Virus record (IMG/VR): IMGVR_UViG_3300020156_000003
Location: 46,825 to 110,824 of that record
Source: a virus
Taxonomy: Duplodnaviria > Heunggongvirae > Uroviricota > Caudoviricetes
Strand: one strand, 5' to 3'
DNA: 64,000 nt
Part shown: positions 5,934-45,346 of the stretch, one piece after another
Layout of the letters: each line of letters begins with the position of its first letter
Position numbering within the stretch: the stretch's first letter is position 1
Made by a program: the position numbers and the translations under genes
Notes under the pieces: generated by a model
The model's input: only the letters and a program-made list of their open reading frames with translations
Database searches by the model: none
Told to the model about the DNA's origin: nothing

Positions 5934-6647
5934 ATGATTGAACACACGCACGGCGCCTTCTTCGGCTCGGCACTCGATTTCCACCAGTGCGAGATCCTGG
6001 CGATCGCAAACATCGACCGGCGGCTCCTGGCGCACGAAACGGCCCTCTACGGCCAGAAATGGTTCGACTACCGACCACTCCACCCGACGCTGGCAACCTA
6101 CCTGTTCGCGCATCACTACAATCGCGCATACGGCGCCTTCATGGGGCAGTATTTTGACCACAAGAAGCGCTTTATGGCTGCCTTCAAGGGCAAGGATGTG
6201 ATGGCCGCGCGCGAGAGGAAATCATTCTGGAAGCTGCGTCAGAAGTGTGACGAACTCGGCGTCCGGTACGATTTTTTCTGCCGCGTCACGATGGAGTGGT
6301 GCGCAATCAACGGCTGGAAGCAGCCGCCCCGGCCGGCACACGCGGCGACCAATGCCGAGCTGCTGGTCTACGTGGCAAACCGCTGGGCGCAGGAATGCCG
6401 CGGGAGGATCCAGTGGGCGCACGACCCGCGCTACACGACGCGCAACTGGTGCGGCGCACCCGACCAGGCCGCATACGAGGCGCACGTCTTGGACGCGATC
6501 AAATCCAAACCGCTGCCGCAGTACGCGCTGCACACTGCTCTATATGTATTTGACGCCCTTCGCATCGAAGCGGCGATCGAAAAGCTGCCGGAGTCGGCAG
6601 TCGACCAGGCGGTCGATTTTGCAGCGAAAGAAGTAAGTAAGCAGTGA
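5934..6647 (+). CDS. Hypothetical protein
   Basis: Long ORF with an AGAGGAA RBS. No domain recognised. Confidence 0.5.
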   Translation: MIEHTHGAFFGSALDFHQCEILAIANIDRRLLAHETALYGQKWFDYRPLHPTLATYLFAHHYNRAYGAFMGQYFDHKKRFMAAFKGKDVMAARERKSFWKLRQKCDELGVRYDFFCRVTMEWCAINGWKQPPRPAHAATNAELLVYVANRWAQECRGRIQWAHDPRYTTRNWCGAPDQAAYEAHVLDAIKSKPLPQYALHTALYVFDALRIEAAIEKLPESAVDQAVDFAAKEVSKQ

Positions 6648-6655
6648 GCTATAAT
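6631..6655 (+). promoter_or_regulatory. Conserved phage promoter repeat, type A, copy 1.
   Basis: AAGTAAGTAAGCAGTGAGCTATAATGG with a TATAAT -10 at about 6650-6655. The repeat is near-identical to the copies at 45281, 20529 and 30674. Confidence 0.6.
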
Positions 6656-6713
6656 GGTTTCGTCAGCGCGACATTTTTGCGCGGAAAACCCCAAGTTTTA
6701 GGAGAAACGAAAC

Positions 6714-7184
6714 ATGACATTCCCCCACGGTGCCCGTATTGATGACCCGATTCGCCGCGAGCAGATCGAGGAAGCCCGCCGCATGGCTGAATCGGAAGGC
6801 ATTGCGCCGCGCCGCACCCTGAGCGTCAAGGCGGGCTACGAGAGCCGCATGGACAACCGCAACGCGCCGCCTGCGCGTAAGCCGGCCGGCAAGACCCAAT
6901 TGAAGGGCCACGAAGCCTTTCTAAAGGCGCTGGAGCTGTCCGGCGCCGATGTGGAAATCGAGAAAACCGACGGCACCATTTACCGCGGCAAGGTTAAGCA
7001 TGCGGACAAGTACACGATCACGATCAATGTCGCCGCCGCCGGCCACTACGAGGAGGATGGGCATGAATTCATGCCACATTACTGCGTGGCGCGTGACCGT
7101 GTCGTTTTCAAGCATGACATCAGCGAATTCTCGGCCCTCACGCCGCGCGTTGAGCGTACGGCTGAAGAAGGGGTGCCGGCATGA
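6714..7184 (+). CDS. Hypothetical protein
   Basis: ORF downstream of type A promoter copy 1, with an AGGAGAAA RBS. Confidence 0.5.
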   Translation: MTFPHGARIDDPIRREQIEEARRMAESEGIAPRRTLSVKAGYESRMDNRNAPPARKPAGKTQLKGHEAFLKALELSGADVEIEKTDGTIYRGKVKHADKYTITINVAAAGHYEEDGHEFMPHYCVARDRVVFKHDISEFSALTPRVERTAEEGVPA

Positions 7185-8638
7185 CCGACGCCACATTGCA
7201 GGCTGCCGAAGACTCGGTTGTCGCAATGATCGGCGACCGGATGACTGCCGGTCTGAGCGCGACCGCTTCGGCGCCTGAAATCACGACCGGCACGGACACC
7301 AAGTTCGAGTTCGACGCCGACTTCCAGACCAAGGTCGCCACCCTTGCAGTGCGCAGCATGGATTTCATGCGCAAGACCGCGCACCTGATGAAGCCGGACT
7401 ACTTCGAGAACGCCGGCGAGGCCGCAATGGTCAACCTGGCCCTGCGTTTCTACAAGCAGTACGGCACGGTGCCCACCGCGGCGGCCGCGGCTCAACTGTT
7501 CAAGGACGACATCAGCGCCAAGATCATCCGCAAGGACATGGTGCCGGTCGCGAAAGAGGCGTTCTACAAGGTATTCGACAAGCACGCCGACCTGTCCGAC
7601 AGCCAGTTCTTCGCTGAGAAGGTCGCGGAGTTCGCCCGCCACCAAGCACTCTCGGCGTCGATCCTGGAGTCGGTGGAGCTGCTGGAGAAGAAGCAGTTCG
7701 ACAAGATCAAGCAGATGGTCAAGGCCGCGTGCGAGGTCGGCCTGAACGAGCATGGCGAGGAGTACGACTACTACGCCAAGATCGACGAGCGTACCGCCGA
7801 GCGGGCCGACCGCATGGCCGGCAAGCTGCCGCCCACCGGCATCACGACCGGCCACAAAATGATCGATGAACTGCTGTATCACCGCGGCTGGGGCCGTAAG
7901 GAGCTTTCGGTGATCCTGGGCGGCGCAAAGGCGGGCAAGACGACCGCGTTGATCAACTTCGCCAAAGCGGCGTCGCTGGTCGGCCACAACGTCTTGTACG
8001 TGACCTGCGAAGTGGCGGCCAAGATCATCTCCGAACGTCTCGATGCCACGATGACGGACACCGAGATCAAGAACCTGATGGCAAAGATGAAGGACGTGCA
8101 GGGCAAGGTTAAAGCCCTCATGCCCCGCGCCGGCTGCCTGAAGATCGCGGAGTTCCCGTCCGGCACGCTGACCCCGACGCAGTTGCGCGCCTTGATTGAG
8201 CGCTATAAGTCGCCAGCGTTGATGCCTGACGGCAGCGTGCGCGACCCGATCCAGTTCGACCTGATCGTGGTGGACTACGCCGACATCATGGCGCCGGACT
8301 TTCGGACGAGCGACAACATCGAGAACTCCAAGCAGATTTACCTGGCCCTGCGCGCCATCGCCCACGACGAGAACGTGGCAATGTTGACAGCGACGCAGAC
8401 CAACCGCGAAGGCTTCAAATCGACGGTGGCGAAGGCCGAGCACGTCGCGGACGACTTCAACAAGGTGCGCACGGTGGACATCATGATTTCCATCAACATC
8501 ACCGACGAGGAGCGCGCCAACGGCGAGGCGCGTCTGTATTTCGCAGCGTCGCGTAACCAGCAAGGCGGCTTCACCATCTTCGTGAAACAGGAGTTGGAGA
8601 AGATGAAATTTATCGCAAGCATTTTGAGGATCGAATAA
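7181..8638 (+). CDS. DnaB-like (SF4) replicative DNA helicase
   Basis: Walker A GGAKAGKTT, Walker B DLIVVDYADIM and the H4 motif ATQTNREG. Confidence 0.85.
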   Translation: MTDATLQAAEDSVVAMIGDRMTAGLSATASAPEITTGTDTKFEFDADFQTKVATLAVRSMDFMRKTAHLMKPDYFENAGEAAMVNLALRFYKQYGTVPTAAAAAQLFKDDISAKIIRKDMVPVAKEAFYKVFDKHADLSDSQFFAEKVAEFARHQALSASILESVELLEKKQFDKIKQMVKAACEVGLNEHGEEYDYYAKIDERTAERADRMAGKLPPTGITTGHKMIDELLYHRGWGRKELSVILGGAKAGKTTALINFAKAASLVGHNVLYVTCEVAAKIISERLDATMTDTEIKNLMAKMKDVQGKVKALMPRAGCLKIAEFPSGTLTPTQLRALIERYKSPALMPDGSVRDPIQFDLIVVDYADIMAPDFRTSDNIENSKQIYLALRAIAHDENVAMLTATQTNREGFKSTVAKAEHVADDFNKVRTVDIMISINITDEERANGEARLYFAASRNQQGGFTIFVKQELEKMKFIASILRIE

Positions 8639-9120
8639 TGGAAAAGGCACCCGACATCATTCTTGGCGTGGGCAATGGCTGCGGCACGCTGTTCGTGCGG
8701 GGCGACTACGACAGCATCAAGGCCGCCCAGGCGATCATCGTCGAGCGCGACGAACTGCGGCGGGAGAATAACCTCCTGGCGCCGAAGGTTGCCAACCTGG
8801 AGGAGCACCTGGCAACCGCGCTGCGCCAGTTGGAGCGCATGACATGCGAGCGCAATGCATGGTTCGAGAGTGCAGGCTTCATGGGGCGCGCCACCGACTT
8901 CTATCGCAGCCTGATTGTGGAAATGGGTAAGGTGATCGGGCCGCTGGCCTATACCAGCGAGGACGGCAGCGTGCAAAGCGAGCCGTTGGCGCTGGCCGTG
9001 CGCGACATCGTGGTGGCGCGCTTTTCGCTGCCGAACAATGTCGCGGAAACGCAGTTGCCGAAACCATCTTTCCTGAAGCGTATCCGGTATGCGCTGCGTA
9101 TTATCTTCACAGGTAAATAA
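8638..9120 (+). CDS. Hypothetical protein
   Basis: ORF with an ATAATGG overlapping start, consistent with translational coupling. Confidence 0.5.
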   Translation: MEKAPDIILGVGNGCGTLFVRGDYDSIKAAQAIIVERDELRRENNLLAPKVANLEEHLATALRQLERMTCERNAWFESAGFMGRATDFYRSLIVEMGKVIGPLAYTSEDGSVQSEPLALAVRDIVVARFSLPNNVAETQLPKPSFLKRIRYALRIIFTGK

Positions 9121-9132
9121 CGGGAGCGGGAC

Positions 9133-9321
9133 ATGAGCACTATCGACAAAGAGGACTGGACGCGGCGCTACGCAAATCGGCTGATCAATCGCGCGGCGTT
9201 TCCGGAGGAGACGGCGCACATGATGGCGGGCGACGCCTACGACGTGGCGATGGAAGAAGCCGATGAGGATATGTCGCCGGAAGATTGGGCTGACGAGGAC
9301 ATCAGCGCGATGGTGAACTGA
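9133..9321 (+). CDS. Small acidic protein
   Basis: ORF with GGGAG RBS. The C-terminal half is rich in Asp and Glu. Confidence 0.4.
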   Translation: MSTIDKEDWTRRYANRLINRAAFPEETAHMMAGDAYDVAMEEADEDMSPEDWADEDISAMVN

Positions 9322-9322
9322 C

Positions 9323-11821: not shown

Positions 11822-11836
11822 AAGTCACAAGTGACT
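11822..11836. promoter_or_regulatory. Operator-like palindrome of the TAAGTCA/TGACTT family.
   Basis: AAGTCACAAGTGACT, followed about 21 nt later by TATTAT at about 11859-11864. Confidence 0.55.
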
Positions 11837-11909
11837 ACGAAATCCGCAGCGCGAGCGGTATTATCAGCTTATTGAAAGATTGCGCGAAAGCGTGCGCAGG
11901 GAGGCAACA

Positions 11910-12619: not shown

Positions 12620-12628
12620 GGAGCCATC

Positions 12629-17788: not shown

Positions 17789-17837
17789 GCGGCCTGCAAA
17801 GCCGTCTACGCCGGTTCAATTCCGACCCCCGCCTCCA
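17789..17837 (+). other. attP core: the 3' two-thirds of a tRNA-Cys(GCA) gene (anticodon arm to CCA). The 5' half is absent.
   Basis: Anticodon stem GCGGC/GCCGT with loop CUGCAAA. T-loop GGTTCAATTCC. Acceptor 3' strand CCCCGCC followed by discriminator U and CCA. Only about 49 nt of tRNA are present. Confidence 0.7.
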
Positions 17838-17863
17838 AATTCTTCCTTGTAATTCAAGGACTT

Positions 17864-17957: not shown

Positions 17958-18024
17958 TATAATGTGCGTGTTGGACGTTGACGCGAGTCGGCGACCTTGT
18001 TCGGCAGCATTGCGGGGAATCAAA

Positions 18025-19191
18025 ATGGCAACAAAAAGACAAACGCCAGGCGGCAAGTGGGAATACATCATCAAGCGCTCCAAGCTCCTGGAGAAGCCGA
18101 TCTACCTGACCTTCGATGACGAGGCCGAGGGTGACGCCTACGTCGCCAAGCTCGAAGCGCTCCTAGACCGCGGCGTGGTGCCGCACGAATACCAAAAGCA
18201 AGGCGAGAAGTACGTGCTGCTGGCCGAGCTGATTGCGGACTACTTGGTGCAGGTGCATGTGTCCGATCCGGACAGGAAAATTCTCAACGTGATCTATGCC
18301 CGCATCGGCAAGACCAGTCTGCGGCTCGTCAATTACGCTTGGGTGGAAGGCTGGATCGGCGACATGAAGACGCAGTTGAATTTGAAGCCAGGTACGATTC
18401 GTCACCACGTCGGCGCGCTCGGGCGCTGCTTCGATTGGGCAAGCCGGCGCAACGTCGTGCCGCTGGTGATCAACCCGATCAGGCAACTGCCAAAGAGCTA
18501 CGCGCAGTACAGCGAGCGCGACGCGCAACTGGCGCGCGCCGTCGACGACGACCATGTGCGCCAGGAGGACGAGGAACGTGACAGGCGTCTCGAAGAAGGG
18601 GAGGAGCAGCGGATCCGGCAGATCCTCGACGGCCACAAGCCTGAAGGCCGGCAGCGGGCAATGGCGCTGCGCTATCAGGGCGCCATCGAGCTGCTGTTCG
18701 ACCTGGCGCTGGAGACGGCGATGCGAATGCGGGAAATGTTCACGCTGACCCTGGATCAAGTCGACCTGGCGCGAAAGACGGTCTTTCTCGACAAGACCAA
18801 GAATGGCGACAAGCGGCAGGTGCCGCTGTCGTCGGTGGCGCTGTCGCGCATTCAGCGCTACATGGAGCAGGTGAGGGCCGCAGAGCGCGGCATGGAGGGG
18901 TTCAGCTTCGAGGGCAAGCAGCTCTTTCCTTGGTGGGATGGCTCGCTTGAGCGGGACGAATTGCGGCGCATTACGGCGCTGTTATCGCGCCAGTACGCGC
19001 GTGTTTTTGAGGCGGCCGGCTGTCACGATCTGCGCTTTCACGACTTGCGCCACGAAGCCACCAGTCGCTTCTTCGAGCGCACGCAGTTGCAGGACTTCGA
19101 GATCATGAAGATCACCGGCCACAGTTCCACACGGATGCTGCGGCGCTATTCCAACCTACGCGGCAGCGTGCTGGCCGACAAGCTCTGGTAG
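18025..19191 (+). CDS. int: Tyrosine recombinase (integrase)
   Basis: C-terminal catalytic motifs LRFHDLRHEATSRFFE...ITGHSSTRMLRRYSNL. Lies adjacent to the attP core. Confidence 0.9.
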   Translation: MATKRQTPGGKWEYIIKRSKLLEKPIYLTFDDEAEGDAYVAKLEALLDRGVVPHEYQKQGEKYVLLAELIADYLVQVHVSDPDRKILNVIYARIGKTSLRLVNYAWVEGWIGDMKTQLNLKPGTIRHHVGALGRCFDWASRRNVVPLVINPIRQLPKSYAQYSERDAQLARAVDDDHVRQEDEERDRRLEEGEEQRIRQILDGHKPEGRQRAMALRYQGAIELLFDLALETAMRMREMFTLTLDQVDLARKTVFLDKTKNGDKRQVPLSSVALSRIQRYMEQVRAAERGMEGFSFEGKQLFPWWDGSLERDELRRITALLSRQYARVFEAAGCHDLRFHDLRHEATSRFFERTQLQDFEIMKITGHSSTRMLRRYSNLRGSVLADKLW

Positions 19192-19491
19192 CTCGTAGGC
19201 GGACAAATCGGCGCGCGGGGTCTTTTCCCTGCCGCGCTTCTTGGGCGATACCATAGACGGCACGCGCGCCGCCGTTTGCTGCAATTCTTCCTCCACGCCC
19301 GCTTTCGCCAGGCGCTCGCGCATCTGGCGCCTGGCTTCCGCGCGCAGGTATTCCGTCAAGTCATCCAGCAGAAATACCCAGGCGCGGCCAATGCGCGCAC
19401 CCGGCAATGCGCCGGAGGCGGCCAGCTTCAAAGCGGTCGATTTATCGACCTTCAAGAATTCGGCGCATTCGTCGATGTCCAGCGTTTTCAT
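19156..19491 (-). CDS. xis: Excisionase or AlpA-family HTH protein.
   Basis: LKVDKSTALKLAASGALPGARIGRAWVF matches the excisionase/AlpA HTH family. GGGAG RBS. Convergent 36 bp overlap with int. Confidence 0.7.
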   Translation of the reverse strand: MKTLDIDECAEFLKVDKSTALKLAASGALPGARIGRAWVFLLDDLTEYLRAEARRQMRERLAKAGVEEELQQTAARVPSMVSPKKRGREKTPRADLSAYELPELVGQHAAA

Positions 19492-19554
19492 GTGACTCCC
19501 TGTTCCAGTGACGGAGTGGATCTTATACGTGGTTGGCGCTGAAAGCAAGTCAGC

Positions 19555-19569: not shown

Positions 19570-19698
19570 AGCGCGCGAACGTACCTGCTGAATTGTGGGA
19601 TGACCTAATAGCTAGTTTGTAAGCCACTGTTACAGATAGATAATTTGTCAGTTCGGGAATATATGCCGCAACTGAAAAACGACAGCAAAAGGAAATGT

Positions 19699-19727
19699 TT
19701 GCACGCGGCAAAGGACGCATTTATAAT
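19699..19727 (+). promoter_or_regulatory. Sigma70-like promoter (TTGCAC-17-TATAAT) directly upstream of the LexA box.
   Basis: 17 nt spacer between the hexamers. The TATAAT ends 19 nt before the SOS box. Confidence 0.45.
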
Positions 19728-19746
19728 CGGCTACTGATCCATTCGA

Positions 19747-19766
19747 TACTGTATAAACGTACAGTA
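19747..19766. promoter_or_regulatory. LexA (SOS) box
   Basis: TACTGTATAAACGTACAGTA has the form CTGT-N8-ACAG. This is a near-perfect palindrome matching the gamma/beta-proteobacterial LexA consensus. Confidence 0.7.
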
Positions 19767-19854: not shown

Positions 19855-20313
19855 TCAAAAGTTCTCGGGCTTCAGGGTGTCAATCACGGCCAAGAGCGCG
19901 GCACGCTCGGTATCGTTGCGCAACCGCGGATTGGGCACCTTCGACTGACGGATGCACTCGATGATCTCCACTTCATTTTGCGTCAGCGTGAGCGACGGCG
20001 TAAAGATGATGTCTTGAAGCGCTTCCCAAGTGTCCGGCTCGTATTCTTGCATGACCAGGCGGTACAGGTGCTTCGGATCGACGCCGAGAGCGCGCGCCAT
20101 CGGCCCAACCTTCGACATCGGCAGTTTGGTCTTGCCCTGCTTGATCATCGTGATGATGTTGGGCTTGTTAAAGCCTGCTTCGCGAGCAATCTCCAATTGA
20201 GATTTGCCGCTAAGATCGATTTGCTGGCTGATGTAGTCAGCCACAGTGATGTTGTTGCTGCGTGATTTTCTCGACTTCACGCTCCGTTCTTCGGTAGTGG
20301 ATTCCATAAGCAT
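19855..20313 (-). CDS. XRE-family HTH repressor, CI-like.
   Basis: HTH QLEIAREAGFNKPNIITMIKQGKTKLP. It is divergent from the early operon and lies next to int/xis. GGGAG RBS. Confidence 0.8.
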   Translation of the reverse strand: MLMESTTEERSVKSRKSRSNNITVADYISQQIDLSGKSQLEIAREAGFNKPNIITMIKQGKTKLPMSKVGPMARALGVDPKHLYRLVMQEYEPDTWEALQDIIFTPSLTLTQNEVEIIECIRQSKVPNPRLRNDTERAALLAVIDTLKPENF

Positions 20314-20331: not shown

Positions 20332-20401
20332 GACTTACAGCAAGTCAAAAGTGAATTATTCGTTACGTTGTGATTATAGTCACTTAAAAGTTTTTCGTGA
20401 C
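20332..20401. promoter_or_regulatory. Immunity-region operator cluster carrying the repressor promoter on the minus strand.
   Basis: GACTTAcagcAAGTCAaaaGTGAAT, followed by TATAGTCAC-N13-GTGACTTAT. On the minus strand this reads TAAGTCAC-N13-GTGACTATAAT, the same architecture as the type A promoters. Confidence 0.55.
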
Positions 20402-20528
20402 TTATTCATGTTGATAATGATCAAAGGATTCTACAGCAATCCCCAATGAGGGAACACCGTTTTACCCTATATGTAGTAGGTGGCTCCATTGGATAACCCG
20501 AATCTTTGCCGGGTTGTCGGTCTGCAAT

Positions 20529-20552
20529 AGTAAGTAATAAGTGAGCTATAAT
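20529..20552 (+). promoter_or_regulatory. Type A promoter repeat, copy 2. The early rightward promoter.
   Basis: AGTAAGTAATAAGTGAGCTATAATCG. Confidence 0.6.
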
Positions 20553-20610
20553 CGTTTTGTGCTATCGCAAGCACTTGAATAAAATCAATGTCAAAGGAGT
20601 GTTCCGTCCC

Positions 20611-20814: not shown

Positions 20815-20926
20815 CATCCTCCCACGCCCGTCAGTCCTCGGTGAGTTATGTCGCCGATATGATGCGGTAGGAAAGCTAAAAATCCTACTTGCGTCGCCTG
20901 ACGGGCTTTTTTACAATTCACGTATC

Positions 20927-20942
20927 AGTCAACAGTGACTTA
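20927..20942. promoter_or_regulatory. Operator palindrome in the 5'UTR of the cobT-like gene.
   Basis: AGTCAACAGTGACTTAACAAGGGAG-N7-ATG. This is near-identical to the site at 51801. Confidence 0.55.
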
Positions 20943-23031: not shown

Positions 23032-23051
23032 CACCGGATCGCGTGCAGGAT

Positions 23052-23067
23052 AAGTCACAACTGACTT
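23052..23067. promoter_or_regulatory. Operator palindrome
   Basis: AAGTCACAACTGACTT, followed about 20 nt later by TATCAT. Confidence 0.55.
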
Positions 23068-23161
23068 GCGTTTCCTGCCCGCTGACCGTATCATTCTTTC
23101 TGTCGCAGTAACAAAAACAGTTTTAGTTCATCGGGCAAATGCCCCTTTGTGGAGGATAGAA

Positions 23162-24369: not shown

Positions 24370-25116
24370 ATGCAGCCGGCAATCAGCTTTCAAGAGAATG
24401 TCGGCCTCGTCCACTTGCAGGCGAAGAAAGCCTTCAAGTGGGCGTCAGGCGCGAACACAGGGATGACCTACGAGGACTGTTTTCAGGAAGCCTCACTGGC
24501 ATTCGTGCTGGCGGCGCAGGGTTACGACCCTGACGCCGGCGTCAAATTCAGTGCCTACTACACGCAGGTCGCGTTCAGCCAGTTTCACAAGGCGATCGGT
24601 CGCATGACCGGCGTCAAGCGCTTGAGTCCGGACATGCGCGAGGAGATTGAGGCGCGCAAGGCTGAGAACGAGCGCCGCGCCGCGCAGGCATTGCCACCGC
24701 TGCCGGACATTAACTATTCACTGCCGACCGAGAACTTCTCGACGATGTCGGCGATGGGTGAGGAGGGCGGCGATCCCTTCGAGGCGAGCCTGGCATCGGA
24801 GACGCAGTCGCCCGAGGACATTGTCGCGTTCAACCAGCTATGGCAGCAAGCGACAGCAAACCTGTCGCCCTTGGCAAAGCTGATGGTGGAGTGGCTGCGC
24901 GACCCGCCGCCCGAACTGCTGAAAGAGCTGGACTGCCAGATCGCGTATGCGGAAGAAGCGGCGGCGTGCGGTCGACGAGCCTACGGGATGCGTGACGGCA
25001 TCTCCATCAACAACGTATCGAAGTTCATCGGCATGATCGGCGATGTCAGCAAGCGCGAATTGACGCTGGCTGAAGCCGAGCTGATGGAGGTCGTGAAAAG
25101 GATCGAGGGGGCGTGA
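24370..25116 (+). CDS. Sigma-70 family sigma factor-like protein
   Basis: Region 2 match: YEDCFQEASLAFVLAAQGYDPDAGVKFSAYYTQVAFSQFHKAI aligns with the sigma70 region 2 signature DLIQEGNIGLmkAvdkFDp.rGyrFSTYAtwwIrqaI. Confidence 0.55.
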   Translation: MQPAISFQENVGLVHLQAKKAFKWASGANTGMTYEDCFQEASLAFVLAAQGYDPDAGVKFSAYYTQVAFSQFHKAIGRMTGVKRLSPDMREEIEARKAENERRAAQALPPLPDINYSLPTENFSTMSAMGEEGGDPFEASLASETQSPEDIVAFNQLWQQATANLSPLAKLMVEWLRDPPPELLKELDCQIAYAEEAAACGRRAYGMRDGISINNVSKFIGMIGDVSKRELTLAEAELMEVVKRIEGA

Positions 25117-30641: not shown

Positions 30642-30673
30642 TACCCACATTTTGCCTCATGCTAGCAAGCTGA

Positions 30674-30697
30674 GATAAGTCAGCGGTGAGGTATAAT
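30674..30697 (+). promoter_or_regulatory. Type A-like promoter, copy 3.
   Basis: GATAAGTCAGCGGTGAGGTATAATG. Confidence 0.55.
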
Positions 30698-30781
30698 GTA
30701 AGAGCTGAAACGATGTAACGCACCGGAAGGGCGCCAAGTCTAAAAGGCAACTTTTTAACCTGACCTACGAAAGAACGAACT

Positions 30782-33659: not shown

Positions 33660-33691
33660 TATAATCAGTCGGGGGCGTTCCCCGACTGATT
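33660..33691. promoter_or_regulatory. TATAAT followed by a perfect 12 bp-arm palindrome.
   Basis: TATAATCAGTCGGGG-gcgtt-CCCCGACTGATTAGGAG-ATG. Confidence 0.55.
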
Positions 33692-33696
33692 AGGAG

Positions 33697-35404: not shown

Positions 35405-35800
35405 ATGATTCTATCAACTGCGGCGCTGTGCTTGGCATTGAATGTCTACCATGAGGCAAGAGGGGAACCCACCGCAGGACAGTATGCAATTGCCCATGTA
35501 ACGATGAATCGTGCCAACAACGACAAGCGCCAGGTATGCAAAGTGGTGTTGCAGCCACGTCAGTTTAGCTGGACGGCGGAGAAGGTGCTGGACAGGCGTT
35601 TGCTGGACGCGGGCAAGCCCACTGAGGCGCAAGCGTGGGAGACGGCAAAGATGGTCGCAAACACGGTCTTGGCAGGCAAGATGCCGGACTTTACCTGGGG
35701 CGCAACGCACTTCCACAGCAAGACAGTGCGTCCCAAATGGAAATACAGGATGGTGCTGACGAAAGCCATCGGCGGGCACTATTTTTATCGCGCAGTATAA
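35405..35800 (+). CDS. Cell-wall hydrolase, SleB/Hydrolase_2 family.
   Basis: NVYHEARGEP...AIAHVTMNRANN fits the SleB-family signature EARGE...AVA.VI.NR. Confidence 0.65.
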   Translation: MILSTAALCLALNVYHEARGEPTAGQYAIAHVTMNRANNDKRQVCKVVLQPRQFSWTAEKVLDRRLLDAGKPTEAQAWETAKMVANTVLAGKMPDFTWGATHFHSKTVRPKWKYRMVLTKAIGGHYFYRAV

Positions 35801-35816
35801 TCAGTCATAAATGACT
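35796..35816. promoter_or_regulatory. TATAAT plus operator palindrome plus Shine-Dalgarno sequence.
   Basis: TATAATCAGTCATAAATGACTTAGGAGG-N5-ATG. Confidence 0.55.
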
Positions 35817-35828
35817 TAGGAGGATAGC

Positions 35829-36893
35829 ATGGAGAAGCCCTTTGGCTTGATCAGTGATAGCCATCACCACAACTGGTCTGCCTTTTCGACAACCCTGGCG
35901 ACCGGCGTCAACAGCCGGCTTCAGGAGATCCTGGACGAGACGACGCGCTGCGCCGTCGAGGTCAAGAAGGCGGGTGGCGACACGATGTATCACGGTGGCG
36001 ACCTGTTCCACGTTCGCGGGAGCATCGCGCCGTCGGTCTTGGTGCCGACCCTGGACTGCTACCGTCACATCATCGACGACCTTGGCATTCGCGTGGTCAT
36101 CAACGCCGGCAACCATGACCTCGAAGGCAAGGAGGCGTCGCGCGTGTCGTCGGCAATCACCGCGCTCGAAGGCATCGGCTGCTACGTGGTCAACAAGCCG
36201 AACTACGGCTCCTTCGACCGCATGGTCGTAATCCCCTGGATCCCCAACATCGAGGACTTGAAGAAGGCGATCGAGCACATCGATCCGATCGACCGCAAGG
36301 ACTGCGACCTGCTGCTGCACGCGCCGATCGACGGCGTGATTCCTGGCCTGCCCGACCACGGTCTGACCGACGCGTACCTGGCCGGTCTGGGCTACCGCCG
36401 CGTGTTCGCCGGTCACTACCACCATCACAAGGACTTCGGCAACGGCGTCTACAGCATCGGCAACCTGACCCCGCAGACCTGGAGCGACATCGGAACGAAG
36501 GCGGGCTTTTTGATCTGCACGCCGACCGAAGTCAGGTGGCACAAGTCGCACGCACCCGGCTTCGTGGAAATCGACGGCGCGACTGATCCGGACGAAATCC
36601 CGCTGATCGTCGATGGCAACTATGCGCGCGTGAAGATCAACAGCGCCAAAGCGGCTGACGTGGAAGCGATGCGTCAATTCCTGATGGATAGCGGCGCCAA
36701 GGGCGTGACCGTGTTGCAAATCAAGGATCCGACTGCCGCGGTGTCGATGCGCGTCGGTGGCGCGCTGCTCAAGGCCGGCGCCACCCTGGAGCAGTCGATC
36801 AACGACTTCATCAAGGCGAAGGGTTTCGCCCGCGAGCCTGACCTGGCGAAAGTGTGCCAGGAGATTCTGACCAACGTGAGGGCTGTCGTATGA
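35829..36893 (+). CDS. sbcD: SbcD/Mre11-like nuclease
   Basis: Metallophosphoesterase motifs DSHH, GGDLFH, GNHD and GHYHH. Paired with the SbcC-like gene. Confidence 0.8.
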   Translation: MEKPFGLISDSHHHNWSAFSTTLATGVNSRLQEILDETTRCAVEVKKAGGDTMYHGGDLFHVRGSIAPSVLVPTLDCYRHIIDDLGIRVVINAGNHDLEGKEASRVSSAITALEGIGCYVVNKPNYGSFDRMVVIPWIPNIEDLKKAIEHIDPIDRKDCDLLLHAPIDGVIPGLPDHGLTDAYLAGLGYRRVFAGHYHHHKDFGNGVYSIGNLTPQTWSDIGTKAGFLICTPTEVRWHKSHAPGFVEIDGATDPDEIPLIVDGNYARVKINSAKAADVEAMRQFLMDSGAKGVTVLQIKDPTAAVSMRVGGALLKAGATLEQSINDFIKAKGFAREPDLAKVCQEILTNVRAVV

Positions 36894-37153
36894 CTTGGGC
36901 ATTGATCGCGCAAAGCGCCATTGACGGGCCGTGCGGCGGGATTCTCGCCGCTTCTGCCGACATCGAGACTCACATCATCGCCGAAGACAGCACGATGGGC
37001 CTGTTCATCTTTCCGGATAGCTGGATCGACCCTGGCTTCTACCTGTGGGAAGGCACGATGGAGGCGGCCCTGACCGGCGAGGGCGGCAAGCATACTGTGG
37101 TCGCACCCGAGGACGTGCAGCGCTGGATTGACCGCAGCGGGGAGGAAGCATGA
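36890..37153 (+). CDS. Hypothetical protein
   Basis: ATGA coupling with the upstream gene. Confidence 0.4.
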   Translation: MTWALIAQSAIDGPCGGILAASADIETHIIAEDSTMGLFIFPDSWIDPGFYLWEGTMEAALTGEGGKHTVVAPEDVQRWIDRSGEEA

Positions 37154-37590
37154 GCGACTTCATCGTCAAGGCGATCGTCGACCAGCTTGCCGACGCCGGC
37201 TGCCCGTTGACCGCGCAACAGGTCAACGCGCTTGTTGATGTGCGCAAGAAGTCGATGGCAAAGGCACGCGAGGAGATCAAGAACGCCGTGCGGGCGTCGC
37301 TTCTCAAGGACGGCATCGATACCTCTGACATCAAGCGAGCGGCGCGTGAAATGACTCAGGATACGGTCAATAACACGCTTAAGGAGCGCAACATCGAGCA
37401 GATGGTGGACGCACAAATCCAGAAAGCAATCGCTGCCGCTTTCTCGCCGGCGACAGACATCAAACTCATGGTGAAAAGCGCCATCGAGCGTGAGGCGGCG
37501 AAGGTAGCGCACGAATACATCAAGACCAACATGAAGGTGGATGTTTCGATCAACGAAACGGGCCACTACGTACAAGGGGGAACCTTCTAA
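37150..37590 (+). CDS. Hypothetical protein
   Basis: ORF with a coupled start. Confidence 0.45.
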   Translation: MSDFIVKAIVDQLADAGCPLTAQQVNALVDVRKKSMAKAREEIKNAVRASLLKDGIDTSDIKRAAREMTQDTVNNTLKERNIEQMVDAQIQKAIAAAFSPATDIKLMVKSAIEREAAKVAHEYIKTNMKVDVSINETGHYVQGGTF

Positions 37591-39533
37591 TGGACATCAC
37601 CAACCTTTCCATCCGTAATTTCCTGACCATCGGCGCGGCCGAGCTGGAGCTGGACAGCCGCGGGCTGCTTCTGATCCAGGGCGAAAACGCCGACGACACG
37701 TCCGCGTCCTCCAACGGCGCCGGCAAGTCATCCATCGTTGACTCGATCTGCTGGTGCCTGTACGGGACGACGGCGCGCGACGTGACCGGCGACGACGTGG
37801 TCAACGCGATCGCCAAGAAGGACTGCATGGTGCAGGTTCTCCTGGACGACAACGGCACCGTCTACAAGATCACCCGCTACCGCAAGGACAAAGTCCACAA
37901 AAACCAGTTGTTCGTGGAGCAACAGGACGGCGCCAACTGGCTCGACCTTTCCAAAGGCACTGACAAGGAAACGCAGGAGGTCGTGCGCAAGATCATGGGT
38001 TGCAGCCTGGACGTATTCATCGGCGCGATCTACGCGGGGCAGGAGAAGATGCCCGACCTGCCTGGCATGACCGACAAGCAACTCAAGCTCTTGATCGAGG
38101 AGGCGGCCGGCGTCGAAGAACTCGCCGACGCCTACACCGAAGCATCGCGCCTGTCCCTGATCGCCGAAAAGGACTTCAGTGCGGCGGCGGCCGCGGTCAA
38201 GACGACGCAGCAGCGCCTCGCCGGCATCGAAGCTGAACTGGCCGACGCCGAAGTGCAGCACAAGCTGTTCGAGGACGGCCGCAAGGATCGCGCTCGGGCG
38301 GAGCTGGCGAAGGTCAAGCCGCTGGAGGAGGGAATTGCGCAGTGCAAGGCGGAGATTGCCACCTATGACGTGACCAGCATGTCGGCGCGTAAAGCTGCCA
38401 TCGAAACCGATCTCGGCGCTCATCAGACGCAGGTGGACGAGCTAAACAGCCTGATCACAGAAGAACGCAAGCTGGCAACCCGCGTCGCCTCGCTGCGCAC
38501 GACCGCGGAAACCGAGAAGAAGCGCCTGGACGCGCAGATCGCGGCCCTGGCTGACATTGATAGCCAGGTCGGCAAGCCCTGCGGCGAGTGTGGCAAGGCT
38601 TACTGTGAACACGACCTGGAAGACGCCAAGAAGACCCGCCAGGCGTCGATCGCTGCCGCCAAAGCGAACCTGCAAACCAACGTCGCCGCACTCCGCGAGG
38701 CGATCGACGCGCAGAAGAAGGCGGCAACCGACATTGACACGTTCAAGTCCGGCATGACCGACGTATCGGCGGTTTCGACGGAACTCAAGCAAATCGAAAC
38801 CAAGCTCGCCGAAGTCGCCGCCCTGTCCCGCAAGGTGCAGAGCTACGAGGCAGGCATCGAAGCGGTCAAGGTGGCAGCCAAAGCGAAGCTGACCGAAACG
38901 AACCCCTGGACGAAGGCGGTCGAGTCAAAGCGCGAAGACCGCCAGCGCACCGAGAACGCCATCGGGCAAGCTGAGATCGAGCTGAAGGCGCTGGAAGAAA
39001 AAGCTGAACTCTACGGGAACGCAAAGAAGGTGTTCGGGCCTGCGGGCGTCCGCGCACATATTCTCGATACGGTGACGCCATTTCTGAACGAGAAGACCAC
39101 CGACTATCTGGGCGCACTGGCGGACGGGAATATTCACGCGCAATGGTCGACGCTGGCACCAACGGCGAAGGGCGACCTGAAGGAGAAGTTCAACATCGAT
39201 GTGACCAACGACAAGGGCGGCAAGTCATTCAAGGCGCTGTCCGGCGGTGAAAAGCGCAAGGTGCGCATCGCCTCCAACATGGCCCTGCAAGACATGGTTG
39301 CCTCGCGCGCGGAGAAGCCCATCAACCTGTGGATCGGTGACGAAATCGATCACGCGCTGGACGAGCCGGGGCTGGAGCGCCTGATGACCGTCCTCGACCG
39401 TAAGGCGAAGGAGCGCGGCACGGTGATCGTGATCAGCCACAACTCGCTTTCTGATTGGATCGACAACGTCATCCACATCAAGAAGTCGGGCGGCATCTCC
39501 ACCGTGTCGGGCGCAACCCATCGTGGCTTCTGA
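37590..39533 (+). CDS. sbcC: SbcC/Rad50-like ATPase
   Basis: Walker A SSNGAGKSS. Long coiled coil. ABC signature LSGGEKRKV. Walker B LWIGDEIDHALD. Confidence 0.85.
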   Translation: MDITNLSIRNFLTIGAAELELDSRGLLLIQGENADDTSASSNGAGKSSIVDSICWCLYGTTARDVTGDDVVNAIAKKDCMVQVLLDDNGTVYKITRYRKDKVHKNQLFVEQQDGANWLDLSKGTDKETQEVVRKIMGCSLDVFIGAIYAGQEKMPDLPGMTDKQLKLLIEEAAGVEELADAYTEASRLSLIAEKDFSAAAAAVKTTQQRLAGIEAELADAEVQHKLFEDGRKDRARAELAKVKPLEEGIAQCKAEIATYDVTSMSARKAAIETDLGAHQTQVDELNSLITEERKLATRVASLRTTAETEKKRLDAQIAALADIDSQVGKPCGECGKAYCEHDLEDAKKTRQASIAAAKANLQTNVAALREAIDAQKKAATDIDTFKSGMTDVSAVSTELKQIETKLAEVAALSRKVQSYEAGIEAVKVAAKAKLTETNPWTKAVESKREDRQRTENAIGQAEIELKALEEKAELYGNAKKVFGPAGVRAHILDTVTPFLNEKTTDYLGALADGNIHAQWSTLAPTAKGDLKEKFNIDVTNDKGGKSFKALSGGEKRKVRIASNMALQDMVASRAEKPINLWIGDEIDHALDEPGLERLMTVLDRKAKERGTVIVISHNSLSDWIDNVIHIKKSGGISTVSGATHRGF

Positions 39534-41768: not shown

Positions 41769-41807
41769 TCAGTCAGTCGTGACTATAATAAGTTCACGAC
41801 TGACTGA
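41769..41807. promoter_or_regulatory. 14 bp-arm palindrome with a TATAAT in its centre.
   Basis: TCAGTCAGTCGTGA-cTATAATaagt-TCACGACTGACTGA. Confidence 0.55.
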
Positions 41808-41822
41808 GTTTCGGAGGGCAAA

Positions 41823-42278: not shown

Positions 42279-42287
42279 GAGAAACAC

Positions 42288-42593
42288 ATGGCAAGTTTGC
42301 TTTCTGACATCCTCACGCCTGGCTGGTCGACATCCACGCCTGGCGACATGAAGAACCCATCGGGTCTGAAGCAGTTCGGGCAGGCGAGCGCCGCCGCGGC
42401 AGCCGCAGCAGCGTCCAGCGCCAGCGCGATGGCGTCCCTGAGCGCGGCAATCGCCGATGTCGGGCCGCATACGATCAAGGTTGACAGCAACGGCACGATC
42501 ACCGGCTTTGGCCTGCATTTCAACAGCGCGTCTGCCCCGAAGCAAGCCGATCCCGACGCCGACAAGCCGAAGACTTCGGAAGACGCCTGGTAA
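42288..42593 (+). CDS. Hypothetical protein
   Basis: ORF with a poly-Ala stretch. Confidence 0.4.
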   Translation: MASLLSDILTPGWSTSTPGDMKNPSGLKQFGQASAAAAAAAASSASAMASLSAAIADVGPHTIKVDSNGTITGFGLHFNSASAPKQADPDADKPKTSEDAW

Positions 42594-42607
42594 TTTTCAA
42601 CCCTTAT

Positions 42608-42635
42608 AGTAAGTCATAAGTGACTCACCTATAAT
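42608..42635 (+). promoter_or_regulatory. Hybrid promoter and operator.
   Basis: AGTAAGTCATAAGTGACTCACCTATAAT. This site has the type A layout but carries a full AAGTCA-TGACT palindrome. Confidence 0.55.
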
Positions 42636-42671
42636 TCCACCCCCACCAACGAAAGATACAAAGGAAGAAGC

Positions 42672-45158
42672 ATGAGTAGTTATGCAACACCCGCCCGCAC
42701 CTACGCCAAGGGCATTGGCGACGCGGTCGCGGATCGCACCATCAACCGCAAGATCACCCGTCCGGTGCCGGCATATAAGAAGCCGATGGTGATCCCGCGC
42801 CGCGACGACATGGCGCTCGACGCCGAAGTGGCGGCATGGGCGAAGTCGAACAACCTTGCCATCGACGGCTATGACGTGACCTCTGGCGACGGCGAGTTCG
42901 TCGAGATCCTGTTGAACGTGGTCGGCGAGATCGATGTGGAGAAGTGGGAAGACGTAGCTTATCGCGTCGCCCTTGGCAGCTCCCTGCTGCACCCCCAGGC
43001 GAAAGACTTCTCCGCCGCCGACGTGCCGGCTACTTCCGAGCTGGCTGCGCTGGCAAACCGCCGCGCCCGCGAATTCGAGTCCATGCACCACCATCTGCGC
43101 CAGGCGTCCATTCTGATGTCCGGCCGCCACCTGCAACATGGTGACGAGACACAGCCGACCCGCAACATGGAAGTCTTCACGAACTGCTCCACCGCGGCGA
43201 TGAACGCGCTGAACTTCTACCTGCTCCTCAATGGCTCGGGTGTCGGTCGCAGCTACGACGACGCCATGATGCTGGTGGACTTTGCAGACCTGCCGATCAT
43301 CGTGCCGGTCATCGACTTCACCCATAAGGACGTGCAGACCGGCGAGATCGTCGGCGTGATGGATCGCCGCAGCGCCGAACACCTGTATGCCAACCGCACC
43401 ATCCACTACTTTGAAGTGCCGGACTCCCGCGAAGGATGGGCAAAGGCCAAAGAGAAGATGGAAGTCATGGCGTTCAAGAAGAAGCACCGCAAGGACGTGC
43501 TGATTTTGGACTTCACCAAGGTGCGTCCGCGCGGCAGCCCGATCGGTGGAATGCAGAACCGTCCGGCGTCCGGCCCTGGCCCGCTGATCTCGGCAATCCG
43601 CTGCATCGCCCAACTGCGTGACGCCGGCATGGCACCGTGGCGCAGCACCATGTATGCCGACCACTACAGCGCCGAGTGCGTGCTGGTTGGTGGCGCCCGC
43701 CGTGCTGCACGCATGGCAACAAAGACCTGGCGCGACGAAACCGTCCTCGACTTCATTCAACTCAAGCGCGGCGGGTTCCTGTGGTCGTCCAATAACAGCG
43801 TGACGGTGGATCAGGAGTTCTGGGATTACGTGCGCGGCGTGCGCCAGCCGGTGACGGAATACGAGCGCAAGATGTGCAAGCACGCCCATGCCGTGTTTGA
43901 CGCCTTGTGCGAAGCCGCCTACCACGACGGCACCGGCGAGCCTGGCATCATCACGGTGGACAAGTTGACCTGGAATGAAGAAGGCACCGACGTTCTGATG
44001 GACGGCAACTTCGCCGAGTCGGCCCGCTACAAGCTCGACGCCGACACGCTGGAGCTGACTGCCGCCCTGGCCCGCGCCTGGAAGAACTGCGCCTACAAGG
44101 TCATCACCAACCCCTGCGGCGAGATTGTGCTGTCGGCCCTTGGCGGCTACTGCGTGATCGCGGACGTGGTGCCGTTCCACGCCGGCCCGCCGGCGCCTTA
44201 CCGGAAAGAAAATCTGACGGTGTCGTGGGATGACGACGCTGAAGATGCCTTCCGCACCGCCACGCGCGCGCTGATTCGCACCAACCTGATGGACAGCCTC
44301 TACAGCAAGGAGGTCAAGCGCACTAACCGCATCGGCGTGGGCATCACGGGCCTGCACGAATACGCCTGGGCGCGCTTTGGCTACGGCTTCCGGGACATCA
44401 TCGACGAGGACAAGTCCAAGGACTTCTGGCTGACGCTCTCGCGCTTCAAGCGTGCAGTGCAGGATGAGGCGGCAAGCTACTCTGCGGAATTGGGCGTCGT
44501 GGCGCCGCACACCGACACAACTATCAAGCCGGCCGGCACCACGTCCAAGCTGTTCGGGCTGACCGAAGGCGCACACCTGGCGTCCATGCGCGAATACCTG
44601 CGTTGGGTGCAGTTCCGCAATGACGACCCGCTGATCGAGGAATACCGCGCGAAAGGCTATCCGGTCAAGAAGCTCCAGACCTACAGCGGAACGACCATTG
44701 TGGGCTTCCCGACCAAGCCGACCATCTGCACGCTTGGCATGGGCGACAAGCTGGTGACGGCGGCCGAAGCCACTCCCGAGGAGCAATACCAGTATCTCCG
44801 CCTGCTGGAGAAATACTGGATCACCGGCGTGGCCGAAGACGGCGTGACGCCGCTGCGTGAGACGGGCAATCAGGTGTCCTACACCTTGAAATACCTGCCC
44901 GCATCGGTGAGCTTCGAGGAGTTCAAGCGCACGCTGCTGGAAGGGCAAAGCACGATCCGTTGCTGCTCTGTTATGCCGCAGGGCGACACGTCGGCATACG
45001 AGTATCAGCCCGAGCAGCCGGTCACGAAGGCGGAGTTCGAGCTGATCGCCGCTGCCATCCAGGCGGACGTGAAGGAAGACATCGGCTTCGAGCATGTGGA
45101 CTGCTCGACTGGCGCCTGCCCGACCTCGTTCAACGAGAACGAGGCCGCCACCGCGTAA
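42672..45158 (+). CDS. Ribonucleotide reductase, probably class II (NrdJ-like).
   Basis: Active-site loop VITNPCGEIVLSALGGYC. C-terminal Cys pair CCSVMPQGD. No NrdB-like gene is nearby. Confidence 0.8.
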   Translation: MSSYATPARTYAKGIGDAVADRTINRKITRPVPAYKKPMVIPRRDDMALDAEVAAWAKSNNLAIDGYDVTSGDGEFVEILLNVVGEIDVEKWEDVAYRVALGSSLLHPQAKDFSAADVPATSELAALANRRAREFESMHHHLRQASILMSGRHLQHGDETQPTRNMEVFTNCSTAAMNALNFYLLLNGSGVGRSYDDAMMLVDFADLPIIVPVIDFTHKDVQTGEIVGVMDRRSAEHLYANRTIHYFEVPDSREGWAKAKEKMEVMAFKKKHRKDVLILDFTKVRPRGSPIGGMQNRPASGPGPLISAIRCIAQLRDAGMAPWRSTMYADHYSAECVLVGGARRAARMATKTWRDETVLDFIQLKRGGFLWSSNNSVTVDQEFWDYVRGVRQPVTEYERKMCKHAHAVFDALCEAAYHDGTGEPGIITVDKLTWNEEGTDVLMDGNFAESARYKLDADTLELTAALARAWKNCAYKVITNPCGEIVLSALGGYCVIADVVPFHAGPPAPYRKENLTVSWDDDAEDAFRTATRALIRTNLMDSLYSKEVKRTNRIGVGITGLHEYAWARFGYGFRDIIDEDKSKDFWLTLSRFKRAVQDEAASYSAELGVVAPHTDTTIKPAGTTSKLFGLTEGAHLASMREYLRWVQFRNDDPLIEEYRAKGYPVKKLQTYSGTTIVGFPTKPTICTLGMGDKLVTAAEATPEEQYQYLRLLEKYWITGVAEDGVTPLRETGNQVSYTLKYLPASVSFEEFKRTLLEGQSTIRCCSVMPQGDTSAYEYQPEQPVTKAEFELIAAAIQADVKEDIGFEHVDCSTGACPTSFNENEAATA

Positions 45159-45164
45159 GAGAGG

Positions 45165-45186
45165 GGAGGGGCGCAAGCCCCTCCTT
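45165..45186 (+). terminator. GC-rich hairpin terminator with a GNRA loop.
   Basis: GGAGGGGC-gcaa-GCCCCTCC followed by TTGTGG. Confidence 0.5.
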
Positions 45187-45280
45187 GTGGAGAGCCGACA
45201 TGATTGAATGGCCGGAGTTGAAGTTGCCGCCGATTAACTTGTGGAACGCACCGCGGACGAATCCGCCTCCTGCGCCTCAA

Positions 45281-45305
45281 AAGTAAGTAAGCGGTGAGCT
45301 ATAAT
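45281..45305 (+). promoter_or_regulatory. Type A promoter repeat, copy 4.
   Basis: AAGTAAGTAAGCGGTGAGCTATAATCATTTTGTCAGCGGG. This matches copy 1 at 38 of 40 positions. Confidence 0.6.
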
Positions 45306-45346
45306 CATTTTGTCAGCGGGTAACACCGCATGGATTGGAGAAGCAA

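Follow-up and report, generated by a model that had tools for sequence, protein, structure and literature searches.

Promoters without a -35 hexamer and with an embedded AAGTCA-N4-TGACTT dyad at the early and replication operons of a large temperate phage

The window analysed here, a 64,000-nucleotide stretch of the IMG/VR virus record IMGVR_UViG_3300020156_000003 and part of the 110,838-bp contig of a large phage, contains four related copies of a promoter-like repeat of about 40 bp, which form one part of a larger system built on the 16-18-bp dyad TAAGTCA-N4-TGACTTA. The source is a temperate phage of approximately 110 kb of beta-proteobacteria, and its four repeat copies are probably co-regulated via the embedded AAGTCA-N4-TGACTT dyad. 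With a chance that we put slightly above even, these elements are promoters of the host RNA polymerase with embedded operators, repressed by a regulator of the XRE family. From sequence and structural modelling we infer that a helix-turn-helix (HTH) protein encoded in the window binds the dyad, that its binding represses, that host sigma-70 reads the -10 box and where transcription starts. For comparison, 56 loci of relatives were retrieved via the DnaE protein (66-79% identical, GC content 50-63%, contigs of 105-114 kb); family-wide dyad counts refer to 32 non-redundant loci covering 644 kb.

An initial annotation of the sequence had listed four copies of the repeat, and all four are present at the positions given, with a chance expectation of none. 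The pattern AGTAAGTAAGCnGTGAGCTATAAT is found with 0 mismatches at 6632 and 45282 and with 2 mismatches at 20529 (0.00 expected in shuffles), while the looser pattern TAAGTnAnnnGTGAGnTATAAT additionally recovers the copy at 30676 (0.02 expected in shuffles). The four copies are composed as follows.

6632-6671, plus strand: copy 1, DnaB-helicase operon; AAGTAA 6635-6640, GCAG, TGAGC 6645-6649, TATAAT 6650-6655
20529-20568, plus strand: copy 2, rightward switch promoter beside the HTH gene; AAGTAA 20532-20537, TAAG, TGAGC 20542-20546, TATAAT 20547-20552
30674-30716, plus strand: copy 3, operon of the gp32-like single-stranded DNA-binding protein (SSB); exact AAGTCA 30677-30682, GCGG, TGAGG, TATAAT 30692-30697
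45282-45320, plus strand: copy 4, 3' of the ribonucleotide reductase gene; AAGTAA 45285-45290, GCGG, TGAGC, TATAAT 45300-45305, then TTTTGTCAGCG

As had been annotated, a perfect TATAAT is present and a canonical -35 hexamer absent in all four copies, and every copy is located 5' of a co-oriented gene or operon, namely the DnaB helicase operon, the CobT/CobS/sigma/DnaE operon, the SSB-exonuclease-recombinase operon and the genes beside the ribonucleotide reductase gene. Recognition of the conserved block as a degenerate AAGTCA/TGACTT dyad also holds, with orthologous promoters in relatives having the exact AAGTCA arm. Its supposed location in place of the -35 hexamer needs revision: with TATAAT at -12 to -7, the block constitutes the spacer at about -28 to -13. 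Equally, the copies at 6631 and 45281 are less alike than the 38 of 40 positions once claimed, as 35/40 are identical when counted across 40 positions anchored on TATAAT; the copies at 20528 and 45281 share 29/40, and the copy at 30673 shares 21-24/40 with the others. In copy 1, the degenerate dyad is fused to TATAAT and followed by TTTCGTCAGCG and a short leader hairpin, and in copy 3 a conserved leader block GCTGAAACGATG is found 3' of TATAAT. Leader hairpins are present 3' of the inferred start, with z-scores of -0.7 to -2.9 that are not significant against shuffles; the conserved GTCAGCG and the leader hairpins are compatible with a start approximately 7 nt after the -10 box, a statistically weak indication.

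All four copies match promoters conserved at orthologous positions in the relatives. The SSB promoter is kept approximately 1 kb downstream of DnaE in most relatives, a fused dyad-TATAAT occurs at the position of the switch promoter beside the HTH gene, the DnaB operon promoter has orthologues in L063-L065 of the form AGATAAGTCAyCrCTGArmTATAAT-N5-GGTCAGCGC, and promoters of the same fused type are found at the position of copy 4 in L071 and L072. Since the orthologues have the exact AAGTCA arm, the AAGTAA common to the three most similar copies of the window is a derived variant. The 35/40 identity of the copies at 6631 and 45281 compares with only 27-30/40 to their own orthologues, and different promoters of the closest relative share 21-24/40 mutually; on sequence similarity, the likeness of the copies points to gene conversion or duplication inside this genome.

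Two further features of these sites were recorded. The TAAgTAAgcnGTGA promoter block (6634-6647, 20531-20544, 45284-45297) contains stop codons in the three forward frames, and the gene 5' of 6632 terminates at a TGA within the promoter block. A block GCTGAAACGA(T/C)G just 3' of the SSB promoter (30704-30716) is found family-wide in the SSB leaders of relatives and may serve translational autoregulation, as known from T4 gene 32, or represent a half-site of a regulator.

The repeats are embedded in a considerably wider distribution of the dyad. The AAGTCA-N4-TGACTT palindrome occurs 25 times in the window with up to 2 mismatches, against 0-3 times in shuffles, and mostly in intergenic regions, while 250 dyads were found in the relatives, with strong -10 boxes at preferred offsets. 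The arms carry approximately 1-1.9 bits per position and the centre close to zero. If offsets are counted from the start of the AGTCA arm to that of the -10 hexamer, values of +13/+14 define the class of the four copies, with the right arm fused to the -10 box and the dyad centred at approximately -18.5/-19.5; offsets of +18 and +22 define further classes upstream of the -10 box, offsets of +36/+38 place the dyad centre at -41.5/-43.5, and offsets of -7 and of -15 to -17 place the dyad just 3' of the -10 box. According to the class, the dyad thus overlaps the -35 region, the spacer together with the -10 box, or the start site, and this positional scatter is typical operator behaviour. Representative sites of the window outside the four copies are listed below.

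42604-42635, plus strand: unit of the +18 class 5' of the class II ribonucleotide reductase gene; TATAGT, perfect dyad AAGTCATAAGTGACTC 42611-42626, ACC, TATAAT 42630-42635
41770-41806, plus strand: fused promoter, one base tighter than the four copies; CAGTCAGTCGTGAC fused to TATAAT 41784-41789
4947-4967, plus strand: weaker site of the fused class before a PhoH-like gene; CAGTCAGCGCTGAGT fused to TATAGT
23052-23094, plus strand: canonical promoter with the dyad over the -35; dyad 23052-23067, TTGCGT, 17 bp, TATCAT 23089-23094
1911-1953, 11822-11864 and 61698-61740: further sites with the dyad over the -35
35796-35817, plus strand: unit with the dyad after the -10; TATAAT, directly followed by the dyad CAGTCATAAATGACTT, then Shine-Dalgarno
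51790-51816 and 20912-20941: similar units with the dyad after the -10, before Shine-Dalgarno

The site at 42608 had been considered an exact intermediate between two motif families. It belongs instead to a separate geometry class with a perfect dyad 3-4 bp 5' of TATAAT, and its arrangement of TATAGT, dyad and TATAAT is kept 5' of the ribonucleotide reductase gene in relatives, being shared with L067, L071 and L073. Sites of the +36 class have a canonical -35 hexamer that starts with the final bases of the right arm (first-position T in 25/25 sites, TTG in 15/25) and is located exactly 17 bp from a TAtnAT box; therefore, the phage also has ordinary promoters in which the dyad overlaps the -35. 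The 41770-41806 site additionally forms a 14-bp inverted repeat (CAGTCAGTCGTGAC ... GTTCACGACTGACTG, the latter an inverted dyad copy 3'), with TATAAT placed in the loop should a cruciform or hairpin form. Exact-pattern scans for the core motif in viral and genome collections returned six single unrelated matches, which were judged to be chance.

In the fused class, constraint is confined to the positions T-AAGTCA-nnn(C/G)-TGA-(G)(C)-TATAAT, with the central four bases free in 35 distinct instances. Within 725 kb, all 47 distinct sites of this class are located on the gene strand, and two fusion registers can be distinguished, TGAC|TATAAT with a shared T (22 sites) and TGAnn|TATAAT (25 sites). 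A TTGACA-like -35 hexamer was not found in this class, as information at -35 to -30 is near zero and the region is A-rich and devoid of TTG; equally, a generic promoter scan of the four copies retrieved as the only -35 match CTGAGA at 30670. An extended -10 element (TGn) was also not found in the fused class, the conserved TG being located 1-2 bp too far upstream. A T-rich block or CCTGAC upstream was considered as a -35 and rejected for wrong spacing (8-10 nt or 29 nt). A/T tracts are found upstream of the fused promoters at approximately -54 to -50, -43 to -39 and -33 to -29. As the dyad spans about -28 to -12 and leaves the -35 position free, the operator does not force the loss of the -35, which is to be seen as a genuine feature of these promoters. 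Of the earlier proposal of a phage-specific promoter class there remain the promoter-like character, the lack of a -35, the phage-specific and conserved nature and the embedded dyad, while reading by the sigma-like protein of the phage is not supported, as discussed below.

The idea that the dyad generally forms a hairpin is not borne out by a test of flank pairing. At least 5 further pairs are found in 53% of the class with the dyad over the -35, compared with 3.8% of flank-swapped controls and 3% of the fused class, so that only in the former class and at a few individual sites does the dyad cap a longer hairpin with covarying lower stem. Most of the extended cases represent one orthologous site between CobT and CobS. 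Because its centre varies, its arms are constant and a flanking helix is absent, the dyad of the fused class is conserved as duplex sequence and not as a hairpin. At the CobT-CobS site (23040-23096; approximately 17 relatives, e.g. L040:5589-5645), the lower stem varies and stays complementary (GTCAGG/CCTGAC, GGTAGGGA/TCCCTACC, GCTCGGGA/TCCCGAGC), with approximately 4 nt unpaired on the 3' side before the TTGnnn-17-TATCAT promoter. Separate observations concern three sites elsewhere. At 52855-52895 and 53820-53860, perfect 13-bp hairpins carry the dyad at the tip (CATGCATCAGTCAtcgtTGACTGATGCATG, GTGCATAAGTCGtcacTGACTTATGCAC) without a recognisable -10 box, and TCTTGACC or TCTTTACC stands 5' of them. 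At 33660-33696, TATAAT is followed by the hairpin CAGTCGGGGcgttCCCCGACTG (33666-33688), which has outer bases as in the dyad and an insert 10 bp longer, and then by a Shine-Dalgarno sequence; this site hints that hairpin formation at the mRNA 5' end matters at some sites.

The product of an HTH gene adjacent to the switch promoter is the best candidate for a regulator binding the dyad.

19855-20313, minus strand: XRE-family HTH protein, candidate dyad binder
20342-20403, minus strand: leftward promoter of the HTH gene; TATAAT 20378-20373, dyads 20342-20357 and 20388-20403

The HTH gene is found in 16/17 full-length relatives, compared with 6/17 for the integrase; in the window as in the relatives, it always diverges from a promoter of the fused dyad-TATAAT type and has dyads on its flanks. 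The most conserved segment of the protein family is the helix-turn-helix EIAxEAGFxKPNIITMIKQGKTKLP, and the profile matches the phage immunity repressor 8bny (E = 7e-4) and 434 Cro. When the two-domain XRE repressors Stl, DdrO and SinR were compared, the structural model (pLDDT 87) matched Stl and DdrO over the full length, while the modelled DNA-binding domain is similar to 434 Cro and repressor (rmsd 1.6-1.9 A, 28-30% identity), P22 c2 and the C-proteins of restriction-modification systems. A 7+4+7-bp dyad is the standard target of XRE-type dimers. Furthermore, a LexA box of the beta/gamma-proteobacterial type is located at 19746-19765, and a LexA-box promoter facing the HTH gene is also found in 4/19 relatives of another sub-lineage (approximately 0.5 expected), which links the HTH gene to prophage induction. 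In the window, the region 19698-19765 consists of a canonical promoter (TTTGCA, 18 bp, TATAAT) followed by the near-perfect LexA box TACTGTATAAACGTACAGTA and is directed rightward into the 3' end of the HTH gene; it could give rise to an SOS-controlled convergent or antisense transcript or to a small antirepressor for prophage induction. The space separating the divergent switch promoters contains, at 20409-20422, a perfect box of the FNR/Anr type, TTGATAATGATCAA.

The HTH protein can be followed into more distant phages. Rhizobium phage RHEph10 possesses a syntenic module, an HTH homologue (38% identity) and eight AGTCA-ATAT-TGACT sites in 43 kb. In detail, these sites (L077; JX483881.1 21220-64633) are GTC-AGTCA-ATAT-TGACT dyads before ribosome-binding sites with a conserved central ATAT, none of which is fused to TATAAT, and the homologue gp041 is co-oriented with the early operon and not divergent from it. 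The SSU5-like Klebsiella phage-plasmid pJN2-26 has an HTH homologue in the same switch layout with the dyad absent and GGTAAGTACTTACC instead. At L078:19438-19451, a spacer-less palindrome GGTAAGT|ACTTACC with the TAAGT core in common stands beside the HTH gene; on such sequence comparison, operator spacing may have changed during evolution of the supergroup.

In the favoured mechanism, the primary RNA polymerase of the host would read the perfect TATAAT in the absence of a -35 box, whereby the perfect -10 and phased upstream A/T tracts would probably suffice as long as the regulator is absent. A dimer of the 19855-20313 XRE protein would occupy the dyad TAAGTCA-N4-TGACTTA, the right arm of which abuts or overlaps the first T of TATAAT (dyad at approximately -28 to -12), and the bound dimer would block the polymerase. 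The same dyad positioned over a -35, a few bases 5' of other -10 boxes, or at approximately +1 to +16 might act likewise, so that one protein would silence nearly all early and replication operons of the temperate phage. Dozens of operators might also freeze the site family-wide, as a new specificity would need all of them to be changed. Several observations weigh against repression by the XRE protein as a full account. The most serious is that none of the approximately 47 sites has a -35, although a repressible promoter would be free to keep one and nothing stands in its way; this hints that a positive factor or a modified form of polymerase is involved. Of the right arm, only TGA is left in the looser fusion register, and AAGTAA alters the most conserved C of the left arm, making the three window copies that carry it the poorest operator matches. 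Some dyads stand directly before ribosome-binding sites without a recognisable -10 box, and a minority are tips of longer hairpins, so that a role at the RNA level is possible. Finally, a comparison of recognition helices between the window, RHEph10 and the SSU5-like phage-plasmid, that is with versus without the dyad, did not settle the link between protein and dyad.

Recruitment or remodelling of the host polymerase at the -35-less promoters by the dyad binder or another phage factor, in other words dependence on an activator, would explain why the -10 is perfect and the -35 absent throughout the fused class though sterically allowed, and must be taken into account even if we judge it unlikely. 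One protein might even activate from the dyad at -41.5 and repress elsewhere, as a second dyad class is centred exactly at this classical class II activator position; this class, however, already owns a TTG -35 at 17-bp spacing. Precedents exist in the late promoters of P1 (Lpa), the middle promoters of T4 (MotA/AsiA) and the C-proteins of restriction-modification systems, XRE dimers that activate as well as repress (PMC2647307) and are structural neighbours of the HTH DNA-binding domain. No Lpa-, MotA- or AsiA-like protein was found, on the other hand, among the approximately 70 window proteins scanned, the promoters drive replication and not late genes, and the best full-length structural matches of the HTH protein are repressors. 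Dyad centres at -18.5, -19.5, -23.5, -27.5, -41.5, +1.5 and +10.5 show no helical phasing, the downstream positions are unworkable for an activator, and a dimer centred at approximately -19 would overlap the footprint of the polymerase. Because the dyad is also found 3' of the -10 or over a canonical -35 and the candidate binder resembles repressors, activator dependence, while possible, is less likely than repression. A dual XRE protein, which would replace the sigma-4/-35 contact from the spacer at approximately -19, act as class II activator at -41.5 and repress 3' of the -10, is to be seen as quite unlikely; if true, dependence on the XRE protein would have left its mark in the universal loss of the -35, and a single master regulator would time the whole early and replication programme of a widespread phage supergroup that includes beta-proteobacterial phages as well as Rhizobium phages.

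Reading of the promoters, as TATAAT plus upstream block, by RNA polymerase carrying the phage's own sigma factor had also been suggested in the initial annotation. A genuine two-domain sigma factor (24370-25116, plus strand; sigma-2 plus C-terminal domain) is encoded and conserved in all relatives, the best alignments of its region 2 are with primary and RpoS sigmas, the fused promoters are without a host-type -35, and first expression of the gene could be driven by the canonical promoter at 23052-23094. In a holoenzyme of the sigma-70 family, the sigma-4 domain contacts approximately -35 to -30. With a complete two-domain sigma, this contact would fall on a region without information, and the conserved arm is located at -27 to -22. 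Alignment of region 2 with SigA indicates that the equivalents of E. coli sigma-70 W433, W434, Q437 and T440, the readers of -12/-11, are replaced, which makes a perfect host-consensus -10 an unlikely target of the phage sigma. Promoters read by a phage sigma would be recognised by host-divergent -35/-10-like elements at holoenzyme spacing, and here the -10 is host consensus with nothing at -35. A monomeric sigma equally does not account for dyads without any -10 or 3' of -10 boxes, and the sigma gene lies in the very operon downstream of the promoter at 20529. This explanation consequently receives little credence; more plausibly, the phage sigma serves late genes outside the window. A function of the dyad at the RNA level, with the hairpin stabilising, processing or terminating transcripts or serving as translational operator, and with the nearness of TATAAT reflecting terminator-promoter cassettes, could draw on the many dyads directly before Shine-Dalgarno sequences, on the flank pairing and covarying lower stems of the class with the dyad over the -35, and on the long hairpins at 52855-52895, 53820-53860 and, after TATAAT, 33666-33688. 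The arms are, however, constant as sequence while the loop varies, the reverse of usual RNA hairpins recognised by proteins; arms of the fused class are often unpairable (3 of 6 pairs for AAGTAA/TGAGCT) with AAGTCA and TGA conserved nonetheless, flanking helices are absent there and at most other sites, the fused dyad is located upstream of the inferred start and would remain untranscribed by its own promoter, and no Rfam family matched, all of which leaves only a slim chance. Inert remnants of a duplicated segment, devoid of promoter or regulatory activity, would be in line with the greater likeness of the copies at 6631 and 45281 to each other than to their orthologues, expected from duplication or gene conversion within the genome, and are nevertheless scarcely credible in view of the fused dyad-TATAAT promoter at each position in relatives with no more than 66-79% DnaE identity, the strand bias of 47 to 0 and a pattern of constrained and free positions as in a functional site. 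Promoters of a T7-like single-subunit polymerase, considered for the 20-40-bp conservation and a loose SP6 likeness, were rejected, the 828-aa and 1172-aa open reading frames being ribonucleotide reductase and DnaE; such polymerases use conserved promoters of about 20 bp that extend across the start site, and no single-subunit RNA polymerase was found among the scanned proteins of the window, a 64-kb part of the approximately 110-kb genome.

Repression by the XRE protein from promoter-embedded operators has its parallels in well-studied phages. To our knowledge, C1 of phage P1 is not an XRE-type protein. As in the C1 system, a large temperate phage with many transcription units has operators scattered at lytic and replication promoters, with 22 dispersed operators in P1 (PMC8546580), which has 45 transcription units (PMC8546580, PMC10695390), and 25 dyads per 64 kb here. 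In contrast to the symmetric 16-18-bp dyad, the P1 operator is an asymmetric 17-mer of different sequence, ATTGCTCTAATAAATTT (PMC8546580), and early promoters of P1 are not characteristically without a -35. The lambdoid CI/Cro systems (434, P22 c2) share the conserved arms with a free 4-bp centre and the divergent regulator gene with sites at both promoters, and the candidate HTH protein is, as modelled, similar to 434 Cro/repressor and P22 c2 in its DNA-binding domain and to Stl/DdrO in its full-length fold. Unlike lambdoid operators, the sites are found at nearly every early promoter instead of one switch region, are invariant in sequence across a broad family and do not diverge with immunity type, and are fused in fixed register to the -10 of -35-less promoters; the candidate also has no LexA-like cleavage domain, in contrast to CI-type repressors.

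Late promoters of P1 have the Lpa repeat near -22 and no -35. What they share with the present promoters is a -10 of the TATAAT type preceded by a short, conserved inverted repeat; they differ in being activated and in serving late morphogenesis and lysis genes, whereas here replication and nucleotide-metabolism genes are served and the dyad is also found 3' of the -10. The Lpa site is a conserved 9-bp inverted repeat (PMC10695390), and an Lpa-like protein was not found in PHROG or Pfam scans of the window proteins. T4 middle promoters (MotA/AsiA) equally combine a strong host-type -10 with a phage-specific upstream element instead of a -35. MotA binds as a monomer to a non-palindromic 9-mer box, the centre of which is at -30. 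Different from it, the dyad is centred near -19, and a MotA/AsiA homologue is missing among the scanned window proteins. C-proteins, finally, are small XRE dimers on GACT/AGTC dyads overlapping the promoter, acting as activators at one site and as repressors at the neighbouring one (PMC2647307), and on modelling C.AhdI, C.BclI and C.Esp1396I appear as structural neighbours of the HTH DNA-binding domain. While C-boxes are GACT-N3-AGTC pairs with 15-bp centre spacing, the dyad is the reverse AGTCA-N4-TGACT, single and genome-wide, and the candidate protein is approximately twice as long with an extra C-terminal domain.

A match for the motif in phages was not found in the literature. The element, the regulator family and the phage group are undescribed; the principle of promoter-embedded operators, dispersed as in P1, is familiar and the advance incremental. 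Still, the invariant dyad marks nearly every early and replication promoter, so that sequence alone allows transcription units and a candidate master regulator to be predicted, providing a readable regulatory code for the large, almost unstudied temperate phages and phage-plasmids of approximately 105-115 kb of Oxalobacteraceae that extends to the Rhizobium phages of the RHEph10 group. The design is unusual in that a -35 is consistently absent and operator and -10 are fused in fixed register.

A megablast search of the window against deposited phages gave no match, and the nearest deposited phages are the Rhizobium phages of the RHEph10 group with approximately 45% DnaE identity. Homologues of its proteins were found in Undibacterium, Massilia and Herbaspirillum genomes. 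The genes of the window are nearly all encoded on the plus strand, and TATAAT has 12 plus-strand occurrences and a single one on the minus strand. Between 3.5 and 49 kb, a replication, recombination and nucleotide-metabolism module comprises PhoH, DnaB, primase, ligase, CobT, CobS, the sigma factor and DnaE; the gp32-like SSB, an exonuclease, a UvsX-like recombinase, SbcCD and RuvC; and class II ribonucleotide reductase, thymidylate synthase and MazG. Like the HTH gene, two further genes are located just upstream of the copy at 20529.

17962-19191: tyrosine integrase
19156-19548, minus strand: excisionase-like protein

These integrase and excisionase-like genes, together with the recurrence of a LexA-box promoter directed at the HTH gene, indicate that the phage is temperate. 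Neither the Rfam scan nor the tRNA scan of the window gave a match. Just 5' of the integrase gene, at approximately 17790-17840, GGTTCAATTCCGACCCCCGCCTCCA resembles a tRNA 3' end and could be the attP core; a complete tRNA was not found by ARAGORN at this site. The SbcD- and SbcC-like proteins (35829-39533) represent subunits of a palindrome-specific nuclease, encoded by the same phage that has dozens of palindromes, several of them with long perfect stems.

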